Below, piece after piece: positions 2,549 through 21,347 of a stretch of 24,589 nucleotides of DNA. Each line of letters starts with the position of its first letter. Position 1 is the first letter of the stretch. The stretch comes from a virus (Duplodnaviria; Caudoviricetes), in IMG/VR virus record IMGVR_UViG_3300020042_002797, positions 1 through 24,589 of that record; one strand, written 5' to 3'. Below the pieces are notes generated by a model, which saw only the letters and a program-made list of their open reading frames with translations, had not been told where the DNA came from and did not search any database. Both the position numbers and the translations under genes were made by a program.

Positions 2549-3184
2549 ATGACCGTAGCAGCAGTAATGACGTATGACAGCTTGGTCGATGACATTACGA
2601 CCTATCTGGAGCGCAACGACACGCAAACTCTTGACAAGATTCCGCAGTTCATTATGTTTGCGGAGCAGATTATTGCGTCCGAAATTAAGTTCTTGGGCAA
2701 TCTGGTAGTGGTCTCTAGCACCATGACGCAATCTGACAACATTATTCCCAAGCCCGCCCGCTGGCGCAAGACGGTTTCCATGAACGTCTCGGTGGCTGGA
2801 GTTCGCCAGCCTGTTCTCTTGCGCACCTACGAGTACTTGCGCGAATACTGGCCCGACCAGACCATGACGGACATCCCCAAGTATTTTGGCGATTACGACT
2901 ACGACCACTGGCTGGTGGTTCCAACGCCTGCAACCGGGTACACCTACGAGGTTTTGTACTACGAGCGCAACCAGCCTCTTGATTCTTCCAACCAGTCCAA
3001 CTGGTTTACCGAGTACGCCCCGCAAGCTCTTTTGTACGGTTCACTGCTGCAAGCAATGCCGTTCTTAAAGAACGATGAGCGCATCCCAATGTGGCAGGCG
3101 CAGTACGACAAAATCATCGCTGTCTTGCAGAATGAAAATGCCATCCGTGTGGCTGACCGACAAGCAATTGCGAGGGATACATGA
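2549..3184 (+). CDS. Putative head-tail adaptor / tail tubular protein A-like
   Basis: 211 aa with an AAGGA RBS; TYDSL...I..YLER, FIMFAE and ALLYGSL motifs typical of podovirus adaptors; precedes the nozzle-like gene. Confidence 0.7.
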   Translation: MTVAAVMTYDSLVDDITTYLERNDTQTLDKIPQFIMFAEQIIASEIKFLGNLVVVSSTMTQSDNIIPKPARWRKTVSMNVSVAGVRQPVLLRTYEYLREYWPDQTMTDIPKYFGDYDYDHWLVVPTPATGYTYEVLYYERNQPLDSSNQSNWFTEYAPQALLYGSLLQAMPFLKNDERIPMWQAQYDKIIAVLQNENAIRVADRQAIARDT

Positions 3185-4428
3185 CCACCTTTACCTCTCC
3201 CTTCACGGGCCAAGTCATCCAGCCAACGGATGTCTCGTATCGCTCCATTTCTCTGACGGCTACCAGCCAGCTAACGTGGCCTATCAACGGCAGCCCAACG
3301 GACGATGTTGCCGCACGCATCATGGATGTGTCCTCGACATCCACGACAGGTGCCTTCTCGCTGCTGATGCCGCCAGCCAACCAGACATCGGTTGGTCAGG
3401 ATGCTCTGATTCGCAACACTGGCTCGTATGCCTTCACGGTCAAGGACTACCTCGGCGTCAATGCAATTGCTACTGTTGCCCCAAGCACGGCTGTCTACAT
3501 CTACATCAGAACCAACACCACCACTTCTGGCACTTGGGGTCTGATTCAGTTTGGCGTTGGCTCATCAAATGTAGACGCGGCTGCGCTTGCCGGGTATGGG
3601 TTGAAGGCAATCACCAGCACCCTGAACACCGCCCATCCGGTCACCACGTTCTCTTCTGCATACACCGCAATTGCCTCTGACCGCGCAGCATCCTATGTCT
3701 GGACTGGCGGCGCAGCAACGCTTACCCTTACCGCAGCGACTACGTTGGGCAATGACTGGTTCATGTTGATTCGCAACGGCGGTACTGGCACTTTGGCGGT
3801 GACCCCGGCATCTGGACTCATCAACGGCGTTGCATCCATTGCTTTACAGCCAGCGGACTCCTGCATCATCTGCTGCTCTGGAACCGCATTCTTCACCGTT
3901 GGCTTAGGCCAAGCCTCGCAGTTCAACTTTACCCAGTTGACCAAGGCGGTAGTGACAGGAACCTACACCCTGACATCGTCAGAAGCGTCCAACGTGGTGC
4001 AAAAGTACACAGGCACCTTGACTGGCAATGTGACCGTCATATTGCCGCCGACCATTCAGGTGTACTACATCACCAACCAAACAAACGGCACGGCGTCAAA
4101 CTTCACCATCACGTTCACCACCAATTCAGGTGGAACCGTTGCAACGGTGCCAGCGGGCCAACAGGTCACTTTAATTTGTGACTCGGTCAACCTGCTGAAC
4201 GCAAACACCGTCCTTGCTGGCGCAAGCAGCATCTCCTTGATTGATGGAACCGTTGGAGCGCCTGCACTGAACTTTTCATCTGAGACGTCAACTGGTGTTT
4301 ATCGCGCAACTTCGGGTGAGTTCAACACTGCCATCTTGGGCGTTCTGCGTTCCACGCTGTCGGCCACCGGTCTGGCAATTGTTGGGACAGGCAACTTCAC
4401 CGGTGGAGTTTCTGGCGGTACGTTTTAG
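3181..4428 (+). CDS. Virion structural protein (tail/fibre-proximal, Thr/Gly/Ser-rich beta protein)
   Basis: 415 aa, translationally coupled to both neighbours; DGTVGAPALNFSSETSTGVYR is a fibre-type motif. Confidence 0.7.
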   Translation: MTTFTSPFTGQVIQPTDVSYRSISLTATSQLTWPINGSPTDDVAARIMDVSSTSTTGAFSLLMPPANQTSVGQDALIRNTGSYAFTVKDYLGVNAIATVAPSTAVYIYIRTNTTTSGTWGLIQFGVGSSNVDAAALAGYGLKAITSTLNTAHPVTTFSSAYTAIASDRAASYVWTGGAATLTLTAATTLGNDWFMLIRNGGTGTLAVTPASGLINGVASIALQPADSCIICCSGTAFFTVGLGQASQFNFTQLTKAVVTGTYTLTSSEASNVVQKYTGTLTGNVTVILPPTIQVYYITNQTNGTASNFTITFTTNSGGTVATVPAGQQVTLICDSVNLLNANTVLAGASSISLIDGTVGAPALNFSSETSTGVYRATSGEFNTAILGVLRSTLSATGLAIVGTGNFTGGVSGGTF

Positions 4429-7400
4429 TGGCTCAAAAAGTTTTTACCATCGACACCCTCGCTGGAATTCAACGGGATGGAACGGTGTTTGACAAGAACT
4501 ACTACACCGATGGAAAGTGGGTCAGGTTCCAGCGTGGTCGTCCACGCAAGATGGGTGGATTTAGGGTCATATCCAGCCAGTTGAACGGCCCATCTCGCGG
4601 CATTTGGGTAAACACCCAAAACGCCTTCACATCCATTTTCAGCGGGTACAACGATGGACTGCAAGTCCTTACCATTGATGAAAACGGTATTGGCTCTGGT
4701 GTTCAAGATTTCACCTTTAGTAATTTCACTGCCAGCGATGACAACCTGTGGCAGTTTGACGGTTTCTACGATGTATCTGGCTCTGGCTTGCAGACCATCC
4801 TTGCTGCGCCATGTCAAAACCTGAACAGCATCAGTAGCACGGTAAACACCCCTGTGCTGATTGGCAGCATCACTGGCACCACCATGTCAGGAATTGGAGT
4901 TTTTTCTGATTCCAATGCCTACATAAATGGAACAACATCTGTAACCATATCGGAGACCAATGTTTTAATTGGCGCTGGTCAATCTGTTACGGGGACTGGC
5001 ATTCCAAGTGGAACTACGATTGTTTCAAGCGATATTGAAGCGCCTAACTTGAGCAGTGTTGCCGTCACGGGAACAAGCGGAACATTTTCTTGCGCGTCAA
5101 CTTCAGGCTTTTACATCGGCCAAACAGTTACCGTTGCAGGGCTTCTTCCAACGCAAGTTTTGTCATCGGTTGCGGTTACTGGAGTTGGTGGTACTTTTTC
5201 TTGCAGCGCAACCAGCGGCTTGTATAGCGGCCAAGAGGTTGTTGTTTCTGGAAATATTCTTAATACAACATTGGCAAATGTTGCGATTACAGGTTCAAGC
5301 GGAGCATTTTCTTGCACGGCAACAACTGGCCTTGCTGTAGGGCAGCCTGTGGTTGTTTCTGGAGCCATAAGCACGAACACTCTTGCGGCAGTTGCGGTCA
5401 CTAGCGTTACTGGTGATTTTTCTTGCACGGCAACAACTGGTCTTTATGTGGGGCAGCCAATCACTGTTAGCGGCACGCCTACTGCATCAACAATTTCAGG
5501 TGTTGCTGTTACGGGTGTTGCTGGTCAATGTTCCTGCACAGCCACTACGGGCTTGTTCATTGGGCAGCAAATTTTTGTAACTGGAACTTTGACCGGAACT
5601 GCAACTGGTGTCAACGGGAACCAGACTTACTACATCATTGCCACAAACGGAACGTCAACATTTACGTTGTCATCTGCGTCGGGCGGCTCTGCTTTGACAA
5701 CAACCGCTGGCACAACTACTGGGTTGACGTTTACGGCAATTTTGTCAAGTGGTGTGGTGACTGGTACTACCTATTACATTATTGCAACCAACGGGACATC
5801 AACATTCACTTTGTCGCCCTCCATAAATGGAGCGGCAATTGCAACAAATATAGTTACTTTGGCTGGGTTGACGTTTTCTGGGCCTACTGGAACAGGACTC
5901 GTTTCTGGAACCACTTATTACATTTCAGCCACTAACGGCACAACAACATTTTCCTTGTCTTCCGTGTCAGGAGGGTCGCCAATAACAAACACGTTTGGCG
6001 CAACCACTGGGCTGACGTTTGTAACAACGCCATTTACAGGGGTTTTAAGCGGCACAACGTATTACATTATTGCAACCAATGGCACTTCGACATTTACTTT
6101 GTCCGCAACTTCCGGTGGCTCAGCTATTACAACAATAGTGACAAGCACCAACAATTTGGTGTTCACTGTACAAAGATACATTGGCCTGTCTTCTGGTGAA
6201 ACTTACTACGTTATTGCCACCAACTATTCAACAACATTCACTCTATCTGCGACTTCTGGCGGAGGCGCGATATCCACAATTGTTGCGCCAACAACTGGTT
6301 TTGTTTTTACTTTAGGCTCTTACCAGAAGGTTGTTTTATCTGCTGCGGCAACAACAAGCGGCTCCTCAACTCTAACCTTTGACAACAACGTCTCAGTGTC
6401 GGGCGGGGTGGTCTCCCTGCACCCCTATGTCTTTGTGTACGGCAACGATGGGTTGATTAGGAACTGCGCCGCAGGCAACGCCCAAGACTGGGTCTCTGCG
6501 GACGCCAACGAGACCAACGTAGCCACCGGAAAGATTGTCCAAGGGCTACCCGTCCGGGGTGGCTCAAACGCGCCTTCTGGCTTGTTCTGGAGCATTGACA
6601 GCCTAGTCCGCGTGTCCTACATCGGCGGGCAAGGAACACCCCCTCAATACTGGCGCTACGACATCATCAGCAGTCAGTCTTCCATCCTGTCTTCGCAGTC
6701 TGCCATTGAGTACGACGGCGTGTATTACTGGTGTGGCGTTGACCGCTTCTTGCTGTACAACGGCGTGGTCAAGGAAATTCCAAACGCCATGAACCAGAAC
6801 TACTTCTTTGACAACCTGAACTACTCCCAGCGACAAAAGGTATGGGTGAGCAAGGTGCCACGGTTTGGCGAGGTGTGGTGGTTTTACCCCAAGGGAGATG
6901 CAACCGAATGCACCGACGCCATCATCTACAACGTCCGCGAAAACGTCTGGTATGACGCTGGAGAAGCGGATGGAGCTAGACGCTCTGCTGGGTACTTCTC
7001 CCAAGTGTTTGCCTACCCAGTGCAGGCATCATGGGACGCGACCGTTGAGGCAGTGGTGACGACGGGGTCTTTTCTGGTCACTTCAGGAAGCACGTTTGTG
7101 TACACAGACACTTACGATGGGAACATCATCATTGACCAGTTGGTGTCTGGCGCAGGGATTGTTTTGGGGACGCTGGTCAACGGCATCACCTCCAGCAACA
7201 TAAAAGCCCTGTACACGCTCGTGGGCGGGTCTGCTTACACCAATGGCACTTACACCAACGTCGCCCTAACAGGAGGCTCTGGCACGGGCGCACAGGCCAC
7301 TGTGGTGGTGTCTGGTGGGGCAGTCACATCCGTGACCATCACCGCCCGTGGTGCCGCCTATGCAATTGACAACACCCTGAGCGCCACTGCGGCATCAATC

Positions 7401-7928
7401 GGCGGAACTGGCTCGGGCTTCTCCATCAAGGTGCAGACCATCTACCAGCAGGCGGTGACGCTTTCTGTGGCGGCTACGGCCACCGCAACCACAACCCTGA
7501 CGTTCTCCACCCAGCCAGACCTCATTCAAATATTCCAACATGAGATTGGGGTTGACAGCGTCAACGGTCAGGACGTGCTTGCCATTGAGAGCTTCTTTGA
7601 GACCAGCGACCTTAGTTGGGTGGCGGGTGGCCCGTCTCAAACCGAAGCTGTTGGGCTTAACAAGTGGGAGCGCTTGGAGCGAGTTGAGCCAGACTTCCTG
7701 ATGGAGGGCGAGATGAGTTTGGTCGTCACTGGCCGACCATTTGCCCAAAGCGTGGACAAAGAAAGCACGCCCTACTTGTTTGACAAGAACACGGGCAAGA
7801 TTGACATGCGTGAGCAACGCCGTGAGATTCGCCTGCGCTTCATTTCTGACACTGCGGGCGGCGACTACCAATTGGGCAAGGTCTTGCTGCACGCAGAAAT
7901 TGGGGACACCAGACCATATGGCTCTTAA
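4428..7928 (+). CDS. Tail nozzle / tail tubular protein B-like with two inserted beta-rich appendages
   Basis: 1166 aa. WVRFQRGRPRKMGG N-terminus and propeller-like YYWCG..RF..YNG and FGEVWWFYP segments, interrupted by inserts at about 4911-6380 and about 7060-7505. Confidence 0.75.
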   Translation: MAQKVFTIDTLAGIQRDGTVFDKNYYTDGKWVRFQRGRPRKMGGFRVISSQLNGPSRGIWVNTQNAFTSIFSGYNDGLQVLTIDENGIGSGVQDFTFSNFTASDDNLWQFDGFYDVSGSGLQTILAAPCQNLNSISSTVNTPVLIGSITGTTMSGIGVFSDSNAYINGTTSVTISETNVLIGAGQSVTGTGIPSGTTIVSSDIEAPNLSSVAVTGTSGTFSCASTSGFYIGQTVTVAGLLPTQVLSSVAVTGVGGTFSCSATSGLYSGQEVVVSGNILNTTLANVAITGSSGAFSCTATTGLAVGQPVVVSGAISTNTLAAVAVTSVTGDFSCTATTGLYVGQPITVSGTPTASTISGVAVTGVAGQCSCTATTGLFIGQQIFVTGTLTGTATGVNGNQTYYIIATNGTSTFTLSSASGGSALTTTAGTTTGLTFTAILSSGVVTGTTYYIIATNGTSTFTLSPSINGAAIATNIVTLAGLTFSGPTGTGLVSGTTYYISATNGTTTFSLSSVSGGSPITNTFGATTGLTFVTTPFTGVLSGTTYYIIATNGTSTFTLSATSGGSAITTIVTSTNNLVFTVQRYIGLSSGETYYVIATNYSTTFTLSATSGGGAISTIVAPTTGFVFTLGSYQKVVLSAAATTSGSSTLTFDNNVSVSGGVVSLHPYVFVYGNDGLIRNCAAGNAQDWVSADANETNVATGKIVQGLPVRGGSNAPSGLFWSIDSLVRVSYIGGQGTPPQYWRYDIISSQSSILSSQSAIEYDGVYYWCGVDRFLLYNGVVKEIPNAMNQNYFFDNLNYSQRQKVWVSKVPRFGEVWWFYPKGDATECTDAIIYNVRENVWYDAGEADGARRSAGYFSQVFAYPVQASWDATVEAVVTTGSFLVTSGSTFVYTDTYDGNIIIDQLVSGAGIVLGTLVNGITSSNIKALYTLVGGSAYTNGTYTNVALTGGSGTGAQATVVVSGGAVTSVTITARGAAYAIDNTLSATAASIGGTGSGFSIKVQTIYQQAVTLSVAATATATTTLTFSTQPDLIQIFQHEIGVDSVNGQDVLAIESFFETSDLSWVAGGPSQTEAVGLNKWERLERVEPDFLMEGEMSLVVTGRPFAQSVDKESTPYLFDKNTGKIDMREQRREIRLRFISDTAGGDYQLGKVLLHAEIGDTRPYGS
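5049..5603 (+). repeat. Five tandem 111-bp (37-aa) coding repeats, type A
   Basis: L..VAVTG..G.FSC.ATTGL..GQ.V.VSG units start at 5049, 5160, 5271, 5382 and 5493. Confidence 0.92.
5604..6323 (+). repeat. Five tandem 144-bp (48-aa) coding repeats, type B
   Basis: TYYIIATNGTSTFTLS...GG motif with TYY at 5625, 5769, 5913, 6057 and 6201. Confidence 0.92.
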
Positions 7929-8250: not shown

Positions 8251-11200
8251 ATGGCAAGCGGCCCAGCAGCAAATAAAAAAAAAGCAGAAGTAGTTCCTAA
8301 ACCCCCAAAAGGGGTTCCTGCAAACGCGACCCCTGTATATCAAAATGCGGGCCGTTTGGGCGGAAGAGAAATTGTTAGTTGGCAAATTAGAGACAACGAA
8401 AATAAAACAATTAGCACTTGGAACCCACGCGGGGTGTCTCAAGGTACTAAAAATATGCCAAAGGGATATGCTCCGGGAACGGGGCCACCATCTGGCGGCG
8501 GGTTCTTTGGTTCTATTTCTAACGCCGTTACCAACGTATTACAGCCCATAGAGAAAGCTGTCACCGCTGGTGTGGCGGATGTCAAAAAGGGCGCAACTCA
8601 AGTATTGCAGCCTGTAGAAAAAGCAGTCACCGCTGGCGTTGCGGATGTGAGCAAAGGCGCGACCAACCTACTACAGCCTGTGGAGAAGGTGGTTACAGCG
8701 GTAGCCAGCGACCCTAAAGCACTTGCCGCCGTTGCTCTTGCTGTTGCGGCCCCATATGCCGCTGCACAACTGCTTCCATACCTGAGTGCTTTTGGAGCAT
8801 ACGCTCCTATTGCTGCTCAGGCCATCACCGGAATTACGGTGCAAGTAGCGCAGGGCGTACCCATTGAAAAGGCCACAGAGAATGCGTTAATAAATGTGGC
8901 ACTGTCTGGTGCTTCCAGCGAAGTGCAGCGTCAAATTGGCAGCGTTGTCAAGAACGCCAATGTAGCCAACACCATCTCGTCTACCGTCGTCTCTGGACTT
9001 GCAACCGCTACAAAAGGCGGCTCTCAAGCGGACATTGAAAAGGCCATGACGGCTGGCCTTGTTGGGTCTACCGCATCCACCTTGTACGGCGAGGCTCTTG
9101 GTGTTTCTCCCGCAACATCTTCTGGGGCAAAAGTCGTAGCTAACGCCGCGAACCAAGCCGTGATGGGCGCAACGCCAGAGCAAATAGCAACATCGGCCAT
9201 CGGCCAAATTGGCGCAAACGTGGTAAAGGACGCTATCAAAACACCGCCTGTTGCTCCAGCGGTAAATGAAACAAAAGCAGAGACCGAAAGGCTGGAGAGG
9301 CTAAATGCCACATTAGATGCCGCCCCTGTGAGCGTTGCTTCTGGCGAAGATGTTGGACTTTCTCCTGAGCAAATTTCAGCCCGGATTGACAGCATTATTG
9401 CGGACTCCCCCGGAGTTCAAGTTGCGGGTGCGCTGCCTCTTGCAGAAATGTCGGCAAGTGCGCTATTGCAGCAGCCGGAAAGAGTGCTTCGGCTAGTTAA
9501 AGAAGCAGCCAATGACCCCAACTACAAGGTAATGCTGCCTGCCCTAGAGCGAAGCCTTGGTCAATTTGGACTGACCATTGCCGAAGTTGCATCAAGATTA
9601 AACCCCGCCTTTTTAGCCGCTCAATTAGCGACATTCAGCCCCAACGCTGGTGACCCTGATGAAGATGCAAAGATGGCGCAGATATTTAAAGACTATGGCC
9701 TCAAATTGCCAAGCGCAGTCACGCCGATTGAGACAACGCCCATTCAGTCTACTCCTGTCACCGGATTGGACATCACCAAAGAAAATGAATCACAAGCGGA
9801 AACAGAGCGCCTAACAAGACAGAATGAGCTACTAGCACCAACTGTTCTGGCAGAGCCTCCTCCCGTTGTTGAAACCGTTTCTGAGACCGCTCCCATAGTT
9901 GAGACTCCTCCAACGGAACCACTTGTTCTTGCAGAAACTGCACCTGTAGTTGAGCTTCCACCAAAGGAAACGGAAGCGACCATTATTCAAGTAGACCGCT
10001 ACACGGGAGACGCTCTTGTTCTGACTCCAGATGGAAGCATTTCCACTGTGCAAGTGAGTCCTGATGCGTCGGTTGGCTCTACTGTTGTTGTCTCTGCCCC
10101 AGCTTCTGAGCCTGTCATTGCCCCATCTACTGGGCCTACTACTGAGTCCGTTTTTACTCCAACGACAGTTCAGGAAATGTTGGACGCAATAGCAAATCCC
10201 ATTGGAACTGTTACACCGGCAGAAGTTGCTCCTGTTGTTGAGACTCTACCCGCTCCTGCTCCTATTATTGAGACAGCCCCTATTATTGAGACAGCTCCTG
10301 TAATTGAGACGGCCCCTGTAATTGAGACGGCCCCTGTAATTGAAACAGCTCCTGTAATTGAGACATCTCCTGTAATTGAGACATCTCCTGTAATTGAAAC
10401 AGCCCCTGTAATTGAGACATCTCCTGTAATTGAGACAGCTCCTATTATTGAGACAGCTCCTATTATTGAGACAGCCCCTATTATTGAGACGGCTCCCGTT
10501 GTCGATACAACTCCTATTCTTGAAACAGCCCCTGTTATTGAGACAGTTTCTTTGCCAACTACAGTCGAAGAAATACTGGACGCAATAGCAAATCCAGTTG
10601 TCTCAACCCCAGAAGCGGAGGTTGCTCCTGTTACTGAGCCTGTTTCCGATGGAAGAGAGCCGTGGGATACGGGCGACATTCCGGGGCAAACCATAACGGG
10701 GACACGGCCACCTGCGGAAGAAGTTGTGTCAGAAGAGCTTGACCTTGTTCCTATCCTTCCCCCGGTTCTCACCCCCGTTACCGATACCGTCACCAAGCCT
10801 GTTACCGATACCGTTACTGAGCCTATTACCGATACCGTTACTGAGCCTGTTACCGACCCCGTCGTTGTTGACCCGCCCGTTGTTCCACCTGTTGTACCAA
10901 AAGAAGAAGAAAAACCGACCACTGACCCCAAAAAACCGGACAAGCCTCTAATCAATGTTGTCACCGTTCCGCCCAAAAAACCATCCAAAACATTTCTGGA
11001 GGCTTTTGGAAGCACGGCCTCTGGCGCTATAACCAGCGCTGAACCGCCTGCCACGCAATTTAATTTGCCTACCGGCTTTCAGACCACAGTCACCCCGGAG
11101 CAAAAATTTGAAAGCGCCTTGGAGAAGTTCAATAAATTCCAACAGTCAGTTGACCCCAACGCCGTTCAGTACGCATTGAGCGACCAAACACCGCAAGAAG

Positions 11201-11715
11201 AAAATATGAACTCTTACACCTATGGCGTTGACCGCCCCATTAAAGACATCTTGTCTTCGCAAGAACCCTCTTTGCGAGAAGACGAGTATGTGTTTGATGA
11301 TGTGCCTGAATACATGCAGCCCAGAGTCCGCTCGGCTGCTGGCGGCGCAATTAGTGGCGCACTTGGCGGCACAAGGTATGGCCGGTATGCCCAAGGCGGC
11401 TTGAGCGTGCCCCTGATGGCGCACGGTGGCAAGATGCGGGTGGACTTCCGCCACGGAGACGCCGTAACGGGCGCTGGAGACGGCCAGTCAGATGACATCC
11501 CAGCCATGCTGGCAGACGGGGAGTTTGTGTTCCCAGCCGATGTGGTGGCGGCGATTGGAAACGGCTCCACAAAGGCGGGGTCGGATAAACTATATGACAT
11601 GATGCACGGCATTCGTGCCCATGTGCGGTCAGCAAAACCCAAAGATTTGCCGCCCGAGATTAAGTCACCGCTGGATTTCCTGAAGAACACCAAGCGCACC
11701 AAGGCAAGGAGCTAA
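8251..11715 (+). CDS. Large internal virion/ejection-type protein with a long Pro/Thr/Glu low-complexity region and a conserved C-terminal domain
   Basis: 1154 aa with an AGGAG RBS; Ala/Gly-rich hydrophobic N-half; C-terminal GDGQSDDIPAMLADGEFVFPADVV motif seen in phage virion proteins. Confidence 0.75.
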   Translation: MASGPAANKKKAEVVPKPPKGVPANATPVYQNAGRLGGREIVSWQIRDNENKTISTWNPRGVSQGTKNMPKGYAPGTGPPSGGGFFGSISNAVTNVLQPIEKAVTAGVADVKKGATQVLQPVEKAVTAGVADVSKGATNLLQPVEKVVTAVASDPKALAAVALAVAAPYAAAQLLPYLSAFGAYAPIAAQAITGITVQVAQGVPIEKATENALINVALSGASSEVQRQIGSVVKNANVANTISSTVVSGLATATKGGSQADIEKAMTAGLVGSTASTLYGEALGVSPATSSGAKVVANAANQAVMGATPEQIATSAIGQIGANVVKDAIKTPPVAPAVNETKAETERLERLNATLDAAPVSVASGEDVGLSPEQISARIDSIIADSPGVQVAGALPLAEMSASALLQQPERVLRLVKEAANDPNYKVMLPALERSLGQFGLTIAEVASRLNPAFLAAQLATFSPNAGDPDEDAKMAQIFKDYGLKLPSAVTPIETTPIQSTPVTGLDITKENESQAETERLTRQNELLAPTVLAEPPPVVETVSETAPIVETPPTEPLVLAETAPVVELPPKETEATIIQVDRYTGDALVLTPDGSISTVQVSPDASVGSTVVVSAPASEPVIAPSTGPTTESVFTPTTVQEMLDAIANPIGTVTPAEVAPVVETLPAPAPIIETAPIIETAPVIETAPVIETAPVIETAPVIETSPVIETSPVIETAPVIETSPVIETAPIIETAPIIETAPIIETAPVVDTTPILETAPVIETVSLPTTVEEILDAIANPVVSTPEAEVAPVTEPVSDGREPWDTGDIPGQTITGTRPPAEEVVSEELDLVPILPPVLTPVTDTVTKPVTDTVTEPITDTVTEPVTDPVVVDPPVVPPVVPKEEEKPTTDPKKPDKPLINVVTVPPKKPSKTFLEAFGSTASGAITSAEPPATQFNLPTGFQTTVTPEQKFESALEKFNKFQQSVDPNAVQYALSDQTPQEENMNSYTYGVDRPIKDILSSQEPSLREDEYVFDDVPEYMQPRVRSAAGGAISGALGGTRYGRYAQGGLSVPLMAHGGKMRVDFRHGDAVTGAGDGQSDDIPAMLADGEFVFPADVVAAIGNGSTKAGSDKLYDMMHGIRAHVRSAKPKDLPPEIKSPLDFLKNTKRTKARS
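8530..8703 (+). repeat. About 2.6 copies of a 66-bp (22-aa) coding repeat
   Basis: T(N/Q)(V/L)LQP(I/V)EKAVTAGVADV.KGA at 8530, 8596 and 8662. Confidence 0.85.
10261..10548 (+). repeat. Sixteen tandem 18-bp units encoding P(I/V)IET(A/S)
   Basis: Consensus CCT(G/A)T(A/T)ATTGAGACAGC(T/C), contiguous with no spacers. Confidence 0.95.
10774..10860 (+). repeat. About 3.6 tandem 24-bp units encoding PVTDTVTE
   Basis: CCTGTTACCGATACCGTTACTGAG-like units. Confidence 0.85.
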
Positions 11716-11717
11716 AC

Positions 11718-12749
11718 ATGTCTGATAGCATTTTTGACACGCGGGCAAATCCAGATGTAACTACGACTGCGACCACTACCTCGCAGGCACCGGACTACTA
11801 CACAAACTACTTGAGCAGCCTTTCGCAGGCTGGTCAAGATGCCCTTAATGTTGCAAACCCAATTGCCCCTCTTACCGCCATGCAGACGCAGGGCTACGGA
11901 CAAATTCCTACCGCCGCTGGCTCGTACCAGCCGGGGTTGACTGCCGCAACCTCCACGGCCAACATCGCAGCCGGTGGCGCGTTGCCACAAATTCAGAGCT
12001 TCATGAACCCGTACACCACCAACGTGGTGGACGAGATGGCCCGCTTGCAACAACTTAACATTCAGCGCAACTTGATGCCGCAACTCAAGGCTGGGTTTGT
12101 TGGCACGGGTGGTTTGGGTAGCCAGCGCTACGCTAATGTGATGGGTCAAACAATGTCTGACCTACAGTCCGACTTGCTTGGCAAGCAGTACGGCGCGTTG
12201 TCCGCTGGATACAAAAATGCGGTTGACGCAGCCAACACAAACGTCAGCAACTTAAACCAAGCTGCCCGCACACAAGGAGACCTTGCCGCGTCTGAACAGA
12301 CGCTTGGCCTTACTGGTGCAGGTGCTTTAACTAAGGCCGGTGCAGAGCAACAGTTGTACAACCAAGCGGTGATTGACGCTCCGCTGAAGAACGCTACTAC
12401 CGTTTCTGGGCTGATGCGCGGCTACACCGTTCCGGGCGGCACTACACGCGCAGAAACAGGGCCGCAAACCGCAGCCTACTATGCTGGCTCACCGCTTTCA
12501 CAAGCGTTGGGTATCCCTACATTGATTGCCAGCCAGTTGGGATATACCGCCGAAAAAGACAAGGCAGGCAACATTCTTAAAACAGCTAATAATCTGCAAA
12601 AAATCCTTGACATGGCGGGGCCGTATGTAACTGGCGGTGTGGACGCCATCAAGAATTGGTGGAAAAGCTATAGCTCGGATAGCCCAACTGATAGTTCGGG
12701 CGGCATGTATGAACTGAATGAAGAAACCGGCGAGTGGTATTTACCATAA
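11718..12749 (+). CDS. Putative internal virion / DNA ejection protein
   Basis: 343 aa, Gln/Ala/Gly-rich; FMNPYTTNVVD and GGLGSQR motifs; GGAG RBS; position within the virion operon. Confidence 0.7.
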   Translation: MSDSIFDTRANPDVTTTATTTSQAPDYYTNYLSSLSQAGQDALNVANPIAPLTAMQTQGYGQIPTAAGSYQPGLTAATSTANIAAGGALPQIQSFMNPYTTNVVDEMARLQQLNIQRNLMPQLKAGFVGTGGLGSQRYANVMGQTMSDLQSDLLGKQYGALSAGYKNAVDAANTNVSNLNQAARTQGDLAASEQTLGLTGAGALTKAGAEQQLYNQAVIDAPLKNATTVSGLMRGYTVPGGTTRAETGPQTAAYYAGSPLSQALGIPTLIASQLGYTAEKDKAGNILKTANNLQKILDMAGPYVTGGVDAIKNWWKSYSSDSPTDSSGGMYELNEETGEWYLP

Positions 12750-15012: not shown

Positions 15013-16587
15013 ATGGCTGAACTTACCTTTGGGCCTTTGTTAAACAAAGAGCAGGTTGCGTATGCGACGGAAGTTGCCGAGATGGCGCGGAAGATAGGTG
15101 TGCCCCCTGTGCTTGCGTTGGGCATTGCCTTCAAGGAAAGCTCACTTGACCCCAACGTGAAAGACAGCACTGCTGGCGCTATTGGCGGTATGCAAGTCAT
15201 GCCAGTCCATGCTAAAACATTTAATCTTACCATTGAACAGCTTCGTGACCCAAAAATTAACTTAGAGATTGGCCTCAAGTTGCTAAAGGAAAATTTAGAC
15301 AGAACCAAGGACAAAGACCATCCCAATGGCAATTGGCCGATGTCTGCTGCCCTGTACAACGCTGGTGACAAATTGCTCACCAACGCCAACATTGCCAAGA
15401 ATGGGTTCCCAGCAGAAACCGAAGACTATATTAAAAAGTTAAAAGAATACGGCGTCTTCAAAACAGCAGACAGCGCTCCTGCTGAGGATTACGCTGGAGA
15501 AGCTCCTGCCGATGCGTCTGCTGAAGCGCCTGCCGAAGCTGAAGACAAGTATGGGGAGTTCGAGCGCAAACTGGTTAAACGTCTGGAAGACACAAAGCCC
15601 GACAGAGACATCATTCGAGAAGCTACCGAGCGCAATCAAGCGCAACTTGTTGGCGCTGGTACGGGTGCAGCCATCACTGCTAAAAGGTTGGCTCCAGCGG
15701 CTATTAAATCTTTTGGGCAGATGGTCGAAGAAGGCAAGATTGCTGCCCAAGCTAGAGAAGCAGAACGAGTAGCAAAAGCTGCAATGGGCGCAGGGGGCGC
15801 TGGTATTACTCCGCCAGTGCAGGGCGGGTTGAGCGTTCTTGACCCTAATTCCAATCAGGCAACCAGAATTCTTCAGGGTACCACCGGGGACGAGGGAACC
15901 ACAGGCCGAGCAAGAACGGGATTCAACGAGGAGACCGCACGGCAGGCGGCGCAGCGCAAAGGGGCGGACAATATTGTTTCGCGGTTGAAGCAGGCTGGCG
16001 TAATTGCCAGTGATGCACCAGAGGTTCTTGCAACTACCTCCGGCATGACGTCTTCGCCATCGGGAGTTCAGTACCCACGCTCTGAGGCACGTCCAACTTT
16101 GGGGCCACGCGGCCCAGAAGGTCAAGTTGGCTACACAAGGCCATCACCGCCACCACCCCCGCCACCTCTAAGCCTTGGCGCAAGAACAATGACAAGGGCA
16201 ACCGCTGGGTTGGATTACGTCACAGATTTGTTCGCAGGCATGATGGATTCCAATGTAGGCAGAGGTCTTGGTAATTTCATGCGCATCGCAGGCCCACCCG
16301 CCGCCATTGCTGGCGTTTTAGGCGAAGGCATGAACATCAACCAACAAATGAATAAGCCAAGCGAAGAACGCAGTTACGGCGACATGGCTTTGTCTGGCCT
16401 TGGTGTTGCTGCTGGTCTAGCCTCGCTTGCTCCTGCTGCAACTGTGGCTATTCCCGCTGGGTTAACCGCTGCTGGAATTGCGGGCTATCGCTACCTTCGA
16501 GACCAAGCAGAAGCAGACGCAGCCAGACAGCGGATGACTGGTAAACCAGCTAAGCCCGTTCAGGCCCGTGGTTTTCGAGCACCGTAG
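15013..16587 (+). CDS. Virion-associated lytic transglycosylase (N-terminal SLT domain), ejection protein
   Basis: KESSLDP (catalytic Glu), GAIGGMQVMP, LYNAG and ETEDYIKK motifs; hydrophobic Gly/Ala-rich C-terminus. Confidence 0.87.
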   Translation: MAELTFGPLLNKEQVAYATEVAEMARKIGVPPVLALGIAFKESSLDPNVKDSTAGAIGGMQVMPVHAKTFNLTIEQLRDPKINLEIGLKLLKENLDRTKDKDHPNGNWPMSAALYNAGDKLLTNANIAKNGFPAETEDYIKKLKEYGVFKTADSAPAEDYAGEAPADASAEAPAEAEDKYGEFERKLVKRLEDTKPDRDIIREATERNQAQLVGAGTGAAITAKRLAPAAIKSFGQMVEEGKIAAQAREAERVAKAAMGAGGAGITPPVQGGLSVLDPNSNQATRILQGTTGDEGTTGRARTGFNEETARQAAQRKGADNIVSRLKQAGVIASDAPEVLATTSGMTSSPSGVQYPRSEARPTLGPRGPEGQVGYTRPSPPPPPPPLSLGARTMTRATAGLDYVTDLFAGMMDSNVGRGLGNFMRIAGPPAAIAGVLGEGMNINQQMNKPSEERSYGDMALSGLGVAAGLASLAPAATVAIPAGLTAAGIAGYRYLRDQAEADAARQRMTGKPAKPVQARGFRAP

Positions 16588-19201: not shown

Positions 19202-19408
19202 ATGCCACCAATGACACTCGTTGAGTATTTCCAGCCCCTCCCCCGTGGAGCCAAGTCAGCAATGGCTAAGGAGCTAGGCGTGACCAAAACATGGATTGCG
19301 CTGCTGATAGCTGGCACCCGCAGGCCCAGCGCAGCCCTTGCCGTACAAATCGAACAGTACACCCGCAAGGCAGTTAAAAAGCGAGAGCTGCGTCCTGATT
19401 TATTTTGA
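19202..19408 (+). CDS. Cro/YdaS-like HTH transcriptional regulator
   Basis: KSAMAKELGVTKTWIALLIAGTRRPS HTH and C-terminal ELRPDLF; first gene of the rightward operon. Confidence 0.88.
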   Translation: MPPMTLVEYFQPLPRGAKSAMAKELGVTKTWIALLIAGTRRPSAALAVQIEQYTRKAVKKRELRPDLF

Positions 19409-19423
19409 TGTTACACTAACTCT

Positions 19424-19476
19424 GACATGGCTAGGTTAGCTCCCGAAAAGACGTTTCGTTACCGTCCTGCCTTGTC
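19424..19476 (+). ncRNA. c4 antisense-like structured RNA
   Basis: Outer stem GACA-T-GGC/GCC-T-TGTC, internal TAGCTCCCGAAAA segment and a GACG/CGTC hairpin with loop TTTCGTTAC. An extended -10 (TGtTACACT, 19409-19417) would start transcription at about 19424. Confidence 0.6.
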
Positions 19477-19511
19477 TCCTCCTAGTAACGGCCAACAACG
19501 TAAGGTAACAA

Positions 19512-20162
19512 ATGAGCTTCCAAGCAATGACATGGGCAATAGAGCAGCCCTGCACCAGCGCAGGACAGAAACTGGTTCTGCTGATGCTGGCAAATCACTC
19601 GAACGGCCACACAGGCCAGTGCAACCCCAGCCACAAGCTCTTAGCGAAAGAGTGCGCGATGGGCGTATCAACTCTCAAGGGTCATCTCCTCGACCTACAA
19701 GGTGCTGGCTACTTGACCATCATCCACAAGTCGATGGAGGGCGTGTCCCTACCCAACCAGTACAAGCTCAACGGGGTGGGTCAGAATCTGACGGAGGGTA
19801 GGTCAGAAGCTGACCGGGGGGTGGGCCAGAATCTGGCTACAAAACAGGAAGTTCAACCTGTAAAAGAAACAAAGAATACAACGCCTGACGGCGTTACCGA
19901 TGATGTGTGGCGTGACTTTGTCAAGCTGCGCAATGCAAAGAAAAGTCCTATCACCCAGACAGCCTTGCGGGGTATTGAGCGTGAGGCCCAGAAAGCAGGC
20001 ATCAGCTTGCAGGAGGCTTTGGAGGCTTGCTGCCAACGCGGATGGGCGGGGTTCAAGGCTGAGTGGATGGACAAAGACCAGCCCAAGTACCAGCCAGCGC
20101 AATTGAGCGCAGCACGGGCTATCTTCGGAGACGAGCGAGGTGCATATGCAGCGCTTACCTGA
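19512..20162 (+). CDS. Phage replication initiator (lambda O-like, N-terminal winged HTH)
   Basis: KLVLLMLAN....GQCNPS...LA.EC.MG wHTH; internal iterons; C-terminal W.DF..LR..KK and RGWAGFKAEW motifs. Confidence 0.88.
   Translation: MSFQAMTWAIEQPCTSAGQKLVLLMLANHSNGHTGQCNPSHKLLAKECAMGVSTLKGHLLDLQGAGYLTIIHKSMEGVSLPNQYKLNGVGQNLTEGRSEADRGVGQNLATKQEVQPVKETKNTTPDGVTDDVWRDFVKLRNAKKSPITQTALRGIEREAQKAGISLQEALEACCQRGWAGFKAEWMDKDQPKYQPAQLSAARAIFGDERGAYAALT
19773..19881. promoter_or_regulatory. Putative replication origin: three 21-bp-period palindromic iterons plus an A-rich tract
   Basis: GTCAGAATCTGAC, GGTCAGAAGCTGACC and GCCAGAATCTGGC, each preceded by GGGT(G/A)G, then AAAACAGGAAG...TAAAAGAAACAAAGAATACAA. 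Confidence 0.75.
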
Positions 20163-20505
20163 AGGCTGGATTCAGAGAGTCTTTGCGACCATGCAGGGAC
20201 ATTACGGCACCCGATTCTTAAACATGTGGAAGACGGGTCAGGTTCTGGCCGACGGTACGGACGCTGGTGTTGTCAACGCGATGAACCACTGGTCAGAGAA
20301 GATGGCTGGCGTGAGCGCTGCGACTATCAAGCGTGCGTTAGAGCAGCTACCAGAGGAGCCACCTACCCTGCCGCAGTTCCTGTCCTTGCTGCGCCGCTCC
20401 TATGTTGAGCCAGACACCTTACGGCTGGAGAACAAGCTCACCGCCGAGCAGATGGCAAAGAACAAGCGGCGAATTGCTGAGTTGATTGCAAAGGTGCGGG
20501 CGTGA
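20146..20505 (+). CDS. Replication protein P-like helicase loader
   Basis: Directly follows the initiator; YGTRF...W and PPTLPQF motifs; GAGG RBS before ATG20146. Confidence 0.72.
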   Translation: MQRLPEGWIQRVFATMQGHYGTRFLNMWKTGQVLADGTDAGVVNAMNHWSEKMAGVSAATIKRALEQLPEEPPTLPQFLSLLRRSYVEPDTLRLENKLTAEQMAKNKRRIAELIAKVRA

Positions 20506-20840
20506 GGAAGCCACGCGCCAAAAAGCAGGTATCTATCTGGGTGGAGGAAGACCATGTACGGATACAGCAAGACCCGGCGGTCATCCAGTACATGCGTGAG
20601 TGCGAGGCCCGTGAGTGGATAACGAGGGTCAACCAGAAGGAGAGCGGAGTTGGAATTGGAGAAACGCAAAAATGGTGGTACGACCTCAAAGAAAGAATGG
20701 AAACATCACGGGGCAAGCCTGCTGTTAACGAGTTGATAAAACAAATGAAACTGGAGCAAATCAATGCAAGAAAATCCGTTCAAAAAAAATGTGTTCAATC
20801 AGACTCTGTTCACCCAGCAGGAGTTCAACGAAGCGCTTGA
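20502..20840 (+). CDS. Hypothetical phage protein
   Basis: GTGA overlap with the upstream gene; RECEAREW motif; the 3' end overlaps the next ORF by 77 nt. Confidence 0.65.
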   Translation: MRKPRAKKQVSIWVEEDHVRIQQDPAVIQYMRECEAREWITRVNQKESGVGIGETQKWWYDLKERMETSRGKPAVNELIKQMKLEQINARKSVQKKCVQSDSVHPAGVQRSA

Positions 20841-20997
20841 GGACGTGAAGAAGGAAATCATGGCCTACGCCATGCAAGCCACCATGATGGCAATCATGCT
20901 TGAGCGAGAAGCCTGCGCCAAGATGGCCGACGAGTGCGTGAACATCGAAGAGCTTGGCGACGCCATCCGCAATCGCATCCCGGAGCAGCGCCAATGA
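20764..20997 (+). CDS. Hypothetical phage protein
   Basis: GGAG RBS; EREACAK...AIRNR is a common phage motif; ATGA overlap with rusA. Confidence 0.7.
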   Translation: MQENPFKKNVFNQTLFTQQEFNEALEDVKKEIMAYAMQATMMAIMLEREACAKMADECVNIEELGDAIRNRIPEQRQ

Positions 20998-21347
20998 TGC
21001 CTCTGCAAATCACTTTGCCGTGGCCTCCATCGGTCAACACCTACTGGCGCACCGTCAACGGGCGGATGCTCATCTCTGCTGATGGCCGCGCATATCGCAA
21101 GGCTGTGGCCGACCAGATGTTGATACAACGTGCCCAGAAGCACTTTGATGGGCCTTTGAACTTTACGGTGGAGGCTCACCGCCCGGACAACCGCCGACGC
21201 GATTTAGACAACCTCCTGAAGGCCACGTTGGACTCTCTGGCCCACGCCGGGGTGTACGAAGACGACTCGCAGATACACGACCTGCGCATTTACTGGGCAC
21301 CCGACATCGGCGGAATGCTGAAAATCACAATTGAGGAGATGGAATGA
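20994..21347 (+). CDS. rusA: RusA-family Holliday junction resolvase
   Basis: LPWPPSVNTYWR, RRRDLDNLLKATLDSL and EDDSQI motifs. Confidence 0.93.
   Translation: MMPLQITLPWPPSVNTYWRTVNGRMLISADGRAYRKAVADQMLIQRAQKHFDGPLNFTVEAHRPDNRRRDLDNLLKATLDSLAHAGVYEDDSQIHDLRIYWAPDIGGMLKITIEEME

Follow-up and report, generated by a model that had tools for sequence, protein, structure and literature searches.

We propose that the tail nozzle protein encoded in the window (the whole 24,589-nucleotide stretch of viral DNA analysed here) carries a self-nested appendage, in which five copies of an 85-residue domain, split into halves designated A and B, are very probably nested within a sixth barrel to give a single-chain stalk, likely an optional host-contact arm. 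The nested architecture as such we regard as close to certain; for an accessory host-contact role of the arm on the tail tip, the chances appear about even. Each beta-barrel would be inserted in the same loop of the next, so that the single chain runs out and back along the stalk. By analogy with the hexameric nozzles of SU10, six such stalks would be expected per virion, and at an estimated ~3 nm per barrel each would reach ~15-20 nm.

The nozzle gene and the layout of its repeat array

Similarity of its core places the product of the ORF at 4428-7928 among the podophage tail nozzles (VP1 gp16 / phrog_3287 type). The core matches phrog_3287 (E 2e-19), and query residues 705-845 correspond to residues 202-341 of the solved VP1 nozzle (8ZKM/8ZKK; E 2-3e-8). 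The closest cultured relatives of the nozzle are found in Caulobacter phages, with 53% identity over a 208-residue core stretch. The 510-aa protein of Caulobacter phage RW is collinear with query residues 1-138, 656-864 and 1038-1165 in an alignment with a loose edge just before the first insert, and its two gaps are the two inserts of the query. Furthermore, the gene order expected of a podophage nozzle (adaptor, fibre, nozzle, ejection proteins) is present, with a weak DNA-ejection match at 11718-12749 (E 9e-4) and an SLT domain or weak lytic transglycosylase match at 15013-16587.

2549..3184, + strand: head-tail adaptor gene (PF24175 SU10_adaptor, E 1e-23)
3181..4428, + strand: tail-fibre-like gene between adaptor and nozzle (weak match to phrog_12796 tail fiber, E 6e-5)
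4428..7928, + strand: podophage tail nozzle gene, assigned by core similarity (1166 aa; core of ~510 aa plus two inserts)

An initial annotation of this DNA had described five 111-bp A repeats followed by five 144-bp B repeats (AAAAABBBBB), and this layout was confirmed both in the DNA and in the in-frame protein. At the DNA level, five direct repeats spaced 111 bp (5058-5569) are followed by five spaced 144 bp (5619-6247). In frame, A1-A5 occupy residues 207-391 (37 aa each; pairwise identity 46-62%) and B1-B5 residues 392-631 (48 aa each; pairwise identity 42-62%), so that the whole A+B array covers window positions 5046-6320. The repeats are not an assembly echo, since the copies are only 60-85% identical to the reference copy; the layout also recurs in other samples, the 5+5 arrangement being found in 45 of 276 non-redundant homologues, and an assembly artefact was accordingly ruled out. 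The array sits within a further barrel of another type (residues 159-203 plus 632-653), which relatives of 737 aa carry alone and unsplit. The same annotation had proposed a domain inserted into itself five levels deep; five nested copies are indeed indicated, yet the predicted nest is six barrels deep, the outer barrel of another type having been missed.

4902..5036, + strand: outer barrel, outbound part (residues 159-203); model range 1-496 gives one 67-residue barrel against 8ECI (Z 9.6-9.7, rmsd 1.7)
5046..5156, + strand: A1, putative partner B5 by exclusion
5157..5267, + strand: A2, paired with B4 in the model and absent jointly with B4 in P0006
5268..5378, + strand: A3, paired with B3 in the model
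5379..5489, + strand: A4, paired with B2 in the model
5490..5744, + strand: A5 plus B1, the sole contiguous barrel and predicted stalk tip
5745..5888, + strand: B2, 144-bp repeat
5889..6032, + strand: B3, 144-bp repeat
6033..6176, + strand: B4, 144-bp repeat
6177..6320, + strand: B5, 144-bp repeat
6321..6386, + strand: outer barrel, two returning strands (residues 632-653; strands at model 474-479 and 486-494)

The array (5046-6320) is nearly uncharged, with 1 R, 0 K, 1 D and 2 E in 425 residues, and is 36% Thr+Ser. Each A unit holds one conserved cysteine, and the B units hold none.

Coupled counts and pairing of the A and B units

The homologue pool comprised 321 sequences (proteins plus the best ORF per locus), or 276 after duplicate removal; because these sequences are interrelated and were ordered by their similarity to the query, the counts should not be read as independent observations or as frequencies in a population. 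A and B units were each detected with an HMM of their own; the score distributions were clearly bimodal, and at a unit threshold of 15 bits, units were found in 215 of the 276 homologues and none in the other 61. Balanced bracket strings were obtained for 205 of the 215, in 11 distinct strings, some of them branched. The unbranched strings were AB (35), AABB (1), A3B3 (82), A4B4 (6) and A5B5 (45), and the branched ones include AAAAAAABBBBBBABB (18), AAAAAABBBBBABB (12) and AABABB (3). The ten that did not balance automatically consist of four fragments (L132 and L144 reach the locus end; P0132 and P0153 begin within it) and six proteins related to one another that balance by eye, once an A interrupted by a different insert is counted together with, in five of them, a divergent A at a second site. 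With the four fragments excluded, A and B counts are equal in 205 of 211 homologues, against a mean of 25% and a maximum of 33% in 2000 permutations, a contrast that carries no P value because the proteins are related. Freely unequal copy numbers, which the initial annotation had named as evidence against nesting, are contradicted by these data, and its prediction that the A count equals the B count in homologous nozzles is borne out. A-to-B links measure 9-18 residues, as in single modules, and A-to-A links mostly 6.

The A and B units also occur together in distant proteins. A profile built from 23 contiguous modules retrieved 1033 cluster representatives at E <= 0.001. Among the best 150 of these, 112 balance automatically, one has no unit above threshold and 37 are unbalanced. 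The balanced strings include 61 single AB modules, tandem ABAB (26) and ABABAB (9), and 14 nested forms. Every unbalanced string among the best 150 has surplus B; of the 14 unbalanced strings inspected, 10 balance by eye when weak or split halves are counted, the imbalance persists in P0170 and P0223, and P0219 has a spare B tail. One record, P0286, joins a primase fragment to three B units with zero A; it is the sole B-only case among those inspected and is probably chimeric. Since this distant set holds single, tandem and nested forms, A+B is, on sequence grounds, one domain that is used in all three ways. A5+B1 of the query can be aligned over its full length with 22 contiguous modules.

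A monomer of residues 159-654 was modelled with AlphaFold2 from 43 sequences. The predicted structure is all beta (pLDDT 89.6, pTM 0.63), and in it the outer copies are discontinuous and the innermost continuous, as in self-nested repeats. When A1-A5 alone were modelled with the same 43 sequences, pLDDT fell to 43.0 and pTM to 0.30, with 147 of 188 residues below 50. For the A run, the only one modelled by itself, the prediction thus contradicts an independently folding tandem beta-solenoid.

These results bear on the alternative in which the A units and the B units build two separate repeat domains, beta-solenoids or strings of beads, that number five copies each by chance. Both A and B are regular tandem repeats in the DNA, as that explanation would expect, and the three B units of P0286 lack any A, although an unrelated primase fragment precedes them. 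Against it, the counts are coupled in 205 of 215 homologues, A+B is one contiguous domain in the 61 single-copy representatives, the A array alone reaches a pLDDT of only 43, and the barrels of the model contain both halves. We consider independent domains largely refuted and extremely improbable.

Given a nested fold, the question becomes which A pairs with which B. Pairings were read from the first and last model residues aligned to compact target domains (VIA-align, two runs of 50 rows each). All 100 rows fell on nested spans and none on crossing spans, and the ends of the aligned spans agree with unit boundaries to within a few residues. The span of A5-B1 (model range 193-282) accounted for 8/50 rows in one run and 40/50 in the other, A4-B2 (155-330) for 7/50 and 2/50, A3-B3 (118-378) for 4/50 and 5/50, A2-B4 (83-430) for 28/50 and 1/50, and the outer barrel (1-496) for 3/50 and 2/50; the A1-B5 span was found in 0 of the 100 rows. 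Each of the four inner pairs is therefore predicted to form one barrel, and A5-B1 is the sole contiguous pair, as had been claimed.

Additional evidence comes from P0006, the closest relative of different size, which lacks residues 241-277 (37 residues, A2) and 548-595 (48 residues, B4). Unit orthology for P0006 agrees with this A2/B4 loss. The loss fits nested pairing because B4 disappears with A2, where parallel pairing predicts B2. The nest originally proposed, A1(A2(A3(A4(A5-B1)B2)B3)B4)B5, is thus upheld for its four inner pairs by the model and, for A2-B4, also by P0006, whereas A1-B5 was not seen directly and would follow by exclusion. Two further comparisons were dropped as tests of pairing. 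Unit orthology among distant relatives gave 25 nested and 34 parallel assignments (1 both) of 76 pairs, with margins mostly <0.05; the aggregate ties, and nested pairing is not discriminated from parallel pairing. Covariation spoke for nesting at n=3 and n=4 but was almost tied at n=5, a signal that is weak and confounded by relatedness.

A second alternative retains the same barrels but pairs them across hexamer chains or in another order (a domain swap, or parallel A1-B1), which would form a cage round the tail axis in place of six separate stalks. In principle any A might complement any B, the distant-unit orthology is compatible with parallel pairing, the model is a monomer, and SU10 nozzle domains touch neighbouring subunits according to the accessible text on that structure (PMC9509320). 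On the other hand, the A5-B1 link of 11-13 residues is as in single modules, P0006 loses A2 with B4 rather than B2, and a string with branches, for example AAAAAAABBBBBBABB, is naturally read as nesting within a chain. Pairing across chains or in parallel is accordingly improbable, and in-chain nesting is retained below.

The initial annotation had likened A+B to an E1 FCCH-like barrel, and the likeness stands at the level of fold (Z 5.8-6.9, rmsd 2.4-3.3, 70-78 residues against FCCH of Uba1/Uba6), although the cut-off of the Pfam family (PF16190) was reached by 0 of 23 modules and by no fragment of the window. An Atlas feature match of 0.92 (168/256 features) was obtained in the E1 FCCH comparison. 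The same barrel fold occurs in tail proteins of T1, FCWL1 and Mystique. Because barrels of V-ATPase and EF-Tu score nearly as FCCH does, we take the likeness as a common fold that does not imply descent. Pfam searches with the gene, the insert and the module returned nothing relevant, and the module profile, searched against PDB sequences, gave a best E of only 0.12. The outer barrel matches the Bridgette virion protein 8ECI (Z 9.7, 31% identity). In a Foldseek search of the PDB, Si3 (8EMB) ranked on top (E 1e-4, TM 0.08, probability 0.11) and the Geovibrio flagellin 9AU6 fourth, matches that are a hint only because TM is <0.1; no sandwich-barrel hybrid motif target appeared among the 100 VIA-align rows. 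Foldseek against BFVD was set aside, its matches being mostly uncharacterised or structural phage proteins with high rmsd.

Exchange of the arm and a second, probably nested module

Near-identical nozzles differ in the array. P0063 is 92-97% identical to the query outside the insert and has zero copies, P0020 has one copy and is 83-95% identical outside the insert, and P0002 has a core 75-85% identical with insert units at like positions 79-86% identical. DNA identity to three related loci (L001, L002 and L004) ends at 4886 and returns near 6375. Because near-identical cores differ in the array and DNA identity breaks at its edges, the whole appendage behaves in these sequences as a mobile, optional cassette. 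A quick tree of 92 cores (FastTree, taken without support values) implied 42 architecture changes; these were rejected as independent events, as whole cassettes are swapped, and the 11 distinct strings are a fairer count. Across 241 cores the copy numbers were 0 (61), 1 (33), 3 (74), 4 (3), 5 (39), 6 (1), 7 (11), 8 (18) and 9 (1); no core had 2 copies in this biased sampling.

For a level to be gained or lost, the array must change at two sites in a matched way. A single recombination patch, with one out-of-register crossover in each of the two runs, could add or remove one level. The earlier proposal that length changes solely through the paired gain or loss of an A and a B agrees with the coupled loss in P0006, but cassette swapping and branching also change the arm.

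Arrays are not confined to nozzles. Tail sheath proteins also bear them (AAAABBBB in P0173, with the same layout in L133, L138 and L147), as do proteins with other N-termini. In P0165 and P0176 the module adjoins Sushi- and EGF-like repeats, with the string ABAABB in P0176. A flagellin fragment, P0209 (Flagellin_C), carries distantly related copies of the barrel in tandem, which exceed the E1_FCCH cut-off (33.4 vs 29.5 bits).

The second insert of the query is absent from the RW core, matches phrog_438 at residues 920-1000 (E 8e-6) and contains one copy of a second module. Apparently it is a small two-level nest.

7059..7508, + strand: second insert, read from sequence as another outer-type barrel that is likely interrupted by a single copy of a different module (7200-7439)

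Judging from its repeats, this second, unrelated module self-nests likewise in other nozzles. In L069 (1809-4796) it occupies another nozzle site as a branched array about nine deep, and it is also seen in L061, L064 and L158-L161. In L069 and L061, 11 bodies balance 11 closing strands (10+10 and 9+10 by pattern search, the rest by eye), and the L064 nozzle likewise carries 11 bodies and 11 closing strands. The second-module inserts sit in three different loops.

Role and precedents of the proposed nested arm

We favour host contact as the function of the arm because it is dispensable, rapidly exchanged and located on the tail tip. No recognised binding domain was found at the stalk tip. Two other functions must be weighed. 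In the first, the nested stalks would be mechanical, as in SU10: they would fold back in the virion, then straighten so that the DNA channel becomes longer, and would bind no receptor. As far as its accessible text describes, SU10 has four domains between propeller blades that change from L-shaped to straight (PMC9509320), and the nearly uncharged, Thr- and Ser-rich array of the query would suit such a part. However, near-identical phages lack the array, its lengths are scattered on the core tree, which better fits a variable surface trait, and the same arrays are carried by tail sheaths and other proteins. We regard a mechanical role as unlikely.

In the second, the stalk would be decoration, either near-neutral or protective (as a shield, spacer or drag), and would be kept because unmatched changes are lethal to folding and matched ones are tolerated. 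The arm is dispensable (zero copies in 61 of 241 cores), its tip lacks a binding domain and the module is present in many unrelated proteins, all of which would be expected of decoration. Yet same-position units are 79-86% identical where cores are 75-85% identical, and cassettes of 3 and 5 copies recur across many backgrounds. These observations suggest selection, and decoration seems to us a minority possibility, though a somewhat better one than a mechanical role. Host contact thus remains our preferred function for the arm.

As a rule, phage fibres are built as trimers or as domains strung in tandem. The claim that a nested nozzle fibre would be an unusual design stands in so far as no description of self-nesting in phage nozzles was found in the openly accessible literature searched, but the principle of self-nesting is itself not new. 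The nearest precedent is Si3 of the cyanobacterial RNA polymerase beta' subunit (8EMB; PMC10895346, PMC13114784), which, in the accessible parts of these reports, is likewise an elongated (150 A) array of a repeated small beta domain, part continuous and part assembled from distant segments. Eight sandwich-barrel hybrid motifs, four of them discontinuous, are described there (PMC10895346), and the arrangement is termed a six-level recursive insertion, nesting being described as a minority case (PMC13114784). Si3 appears to differ in its fold, the sandwich-barrel hybrid motif (TM 0.08, no fold match), and differs in being an insert of an enzyme. Unlike Si3, the nozzle array is a cassette that virions can do without, present in 0-9 copies in relatives, and its repeats read as clean brackets.

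Shallower examples are also available, each as given in the accessible text of the source. In the flagellin of Geovibrio thiophilus (9AU6; PMC11532411), D5 is a duplicate of D4 placed in a D4 loop, a self-insertion only two deep, of another fold and in a flagellum. Similarly, dysferlin DysF (PMC3898210) nests one of two like domains in the other, two deep, in a eukaryotic membrane-repair protein. Among phage structures, the SU10 nozzle gp17 (PMC9509320) resembles the query in having four beta domains between propeller blades 2 and 3 as a single-chain arm, but these are Ig-like, serve DNA delivery and are not labelled nested or homologous in the text available. The 'Russian doll' of contractile tail sheaths (PMC6088184) shares domain-in-domain insertion on the phage tail surface but involves dissimilar domains, to a depth of four levels at most. 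E1 FCCH (PF16190) and the barrels of T1, FCWL1, Mystique and endosialidase share the fold (Z 5.8-7.4, rmsd 2.3-3.3 A, 68-78 residues) but are single copies with 12-24% identity to a module that itself has no Pfam match. The chain-like fibres of A1002 (PMC13730344) were rejected as a precedent, being a multi-protein design in the accessible account.

A monomeric arm with both chain ends back at the host protein could be transplanted to a loop in any protein of the virion. The natural series of 0, 1, 3, 4, 5, 7, 8 and 9 copies on a near-constant core makes two matters testable, namely the effect of appendage length on adsorption and the way in which self-inserted repeats can lengthen without misfolding. 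The unit also offers a ready rod module for protein design. Since standard domain annotation misses such proteins (no Pfam match), the class is probably undercounted. A tblastn search of the array against 50,697 GenBank phages gave zero matches, and thus no cultured carrier was found.

More broadly, aquatic phages may generally build adjustable monomeric fibres by recursive self-insertion, with at least two unrelated modules, a branched bracket grammar, up to eight or nine levels, placement on nozzles, sheaths and other virion proteins, single-patch changes in depth, and arms traded to tune host reach. We consider this generalization as likely to hold as to fail.

Elsewhere in the window, the gene 3' of the nozzle (8251-11715; 1154 aa) probably encodes an ejection protein. 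It contains an acidic proline-rich 18-bp repeat in 16 copies at 10258-10546, together with 66-bp and 12/24-bp repeats. Genes at 19202-21347 resemble a repressor, a lambda-O-like replication gene and RusA, and suggest that a temperate lifestyle is possible.
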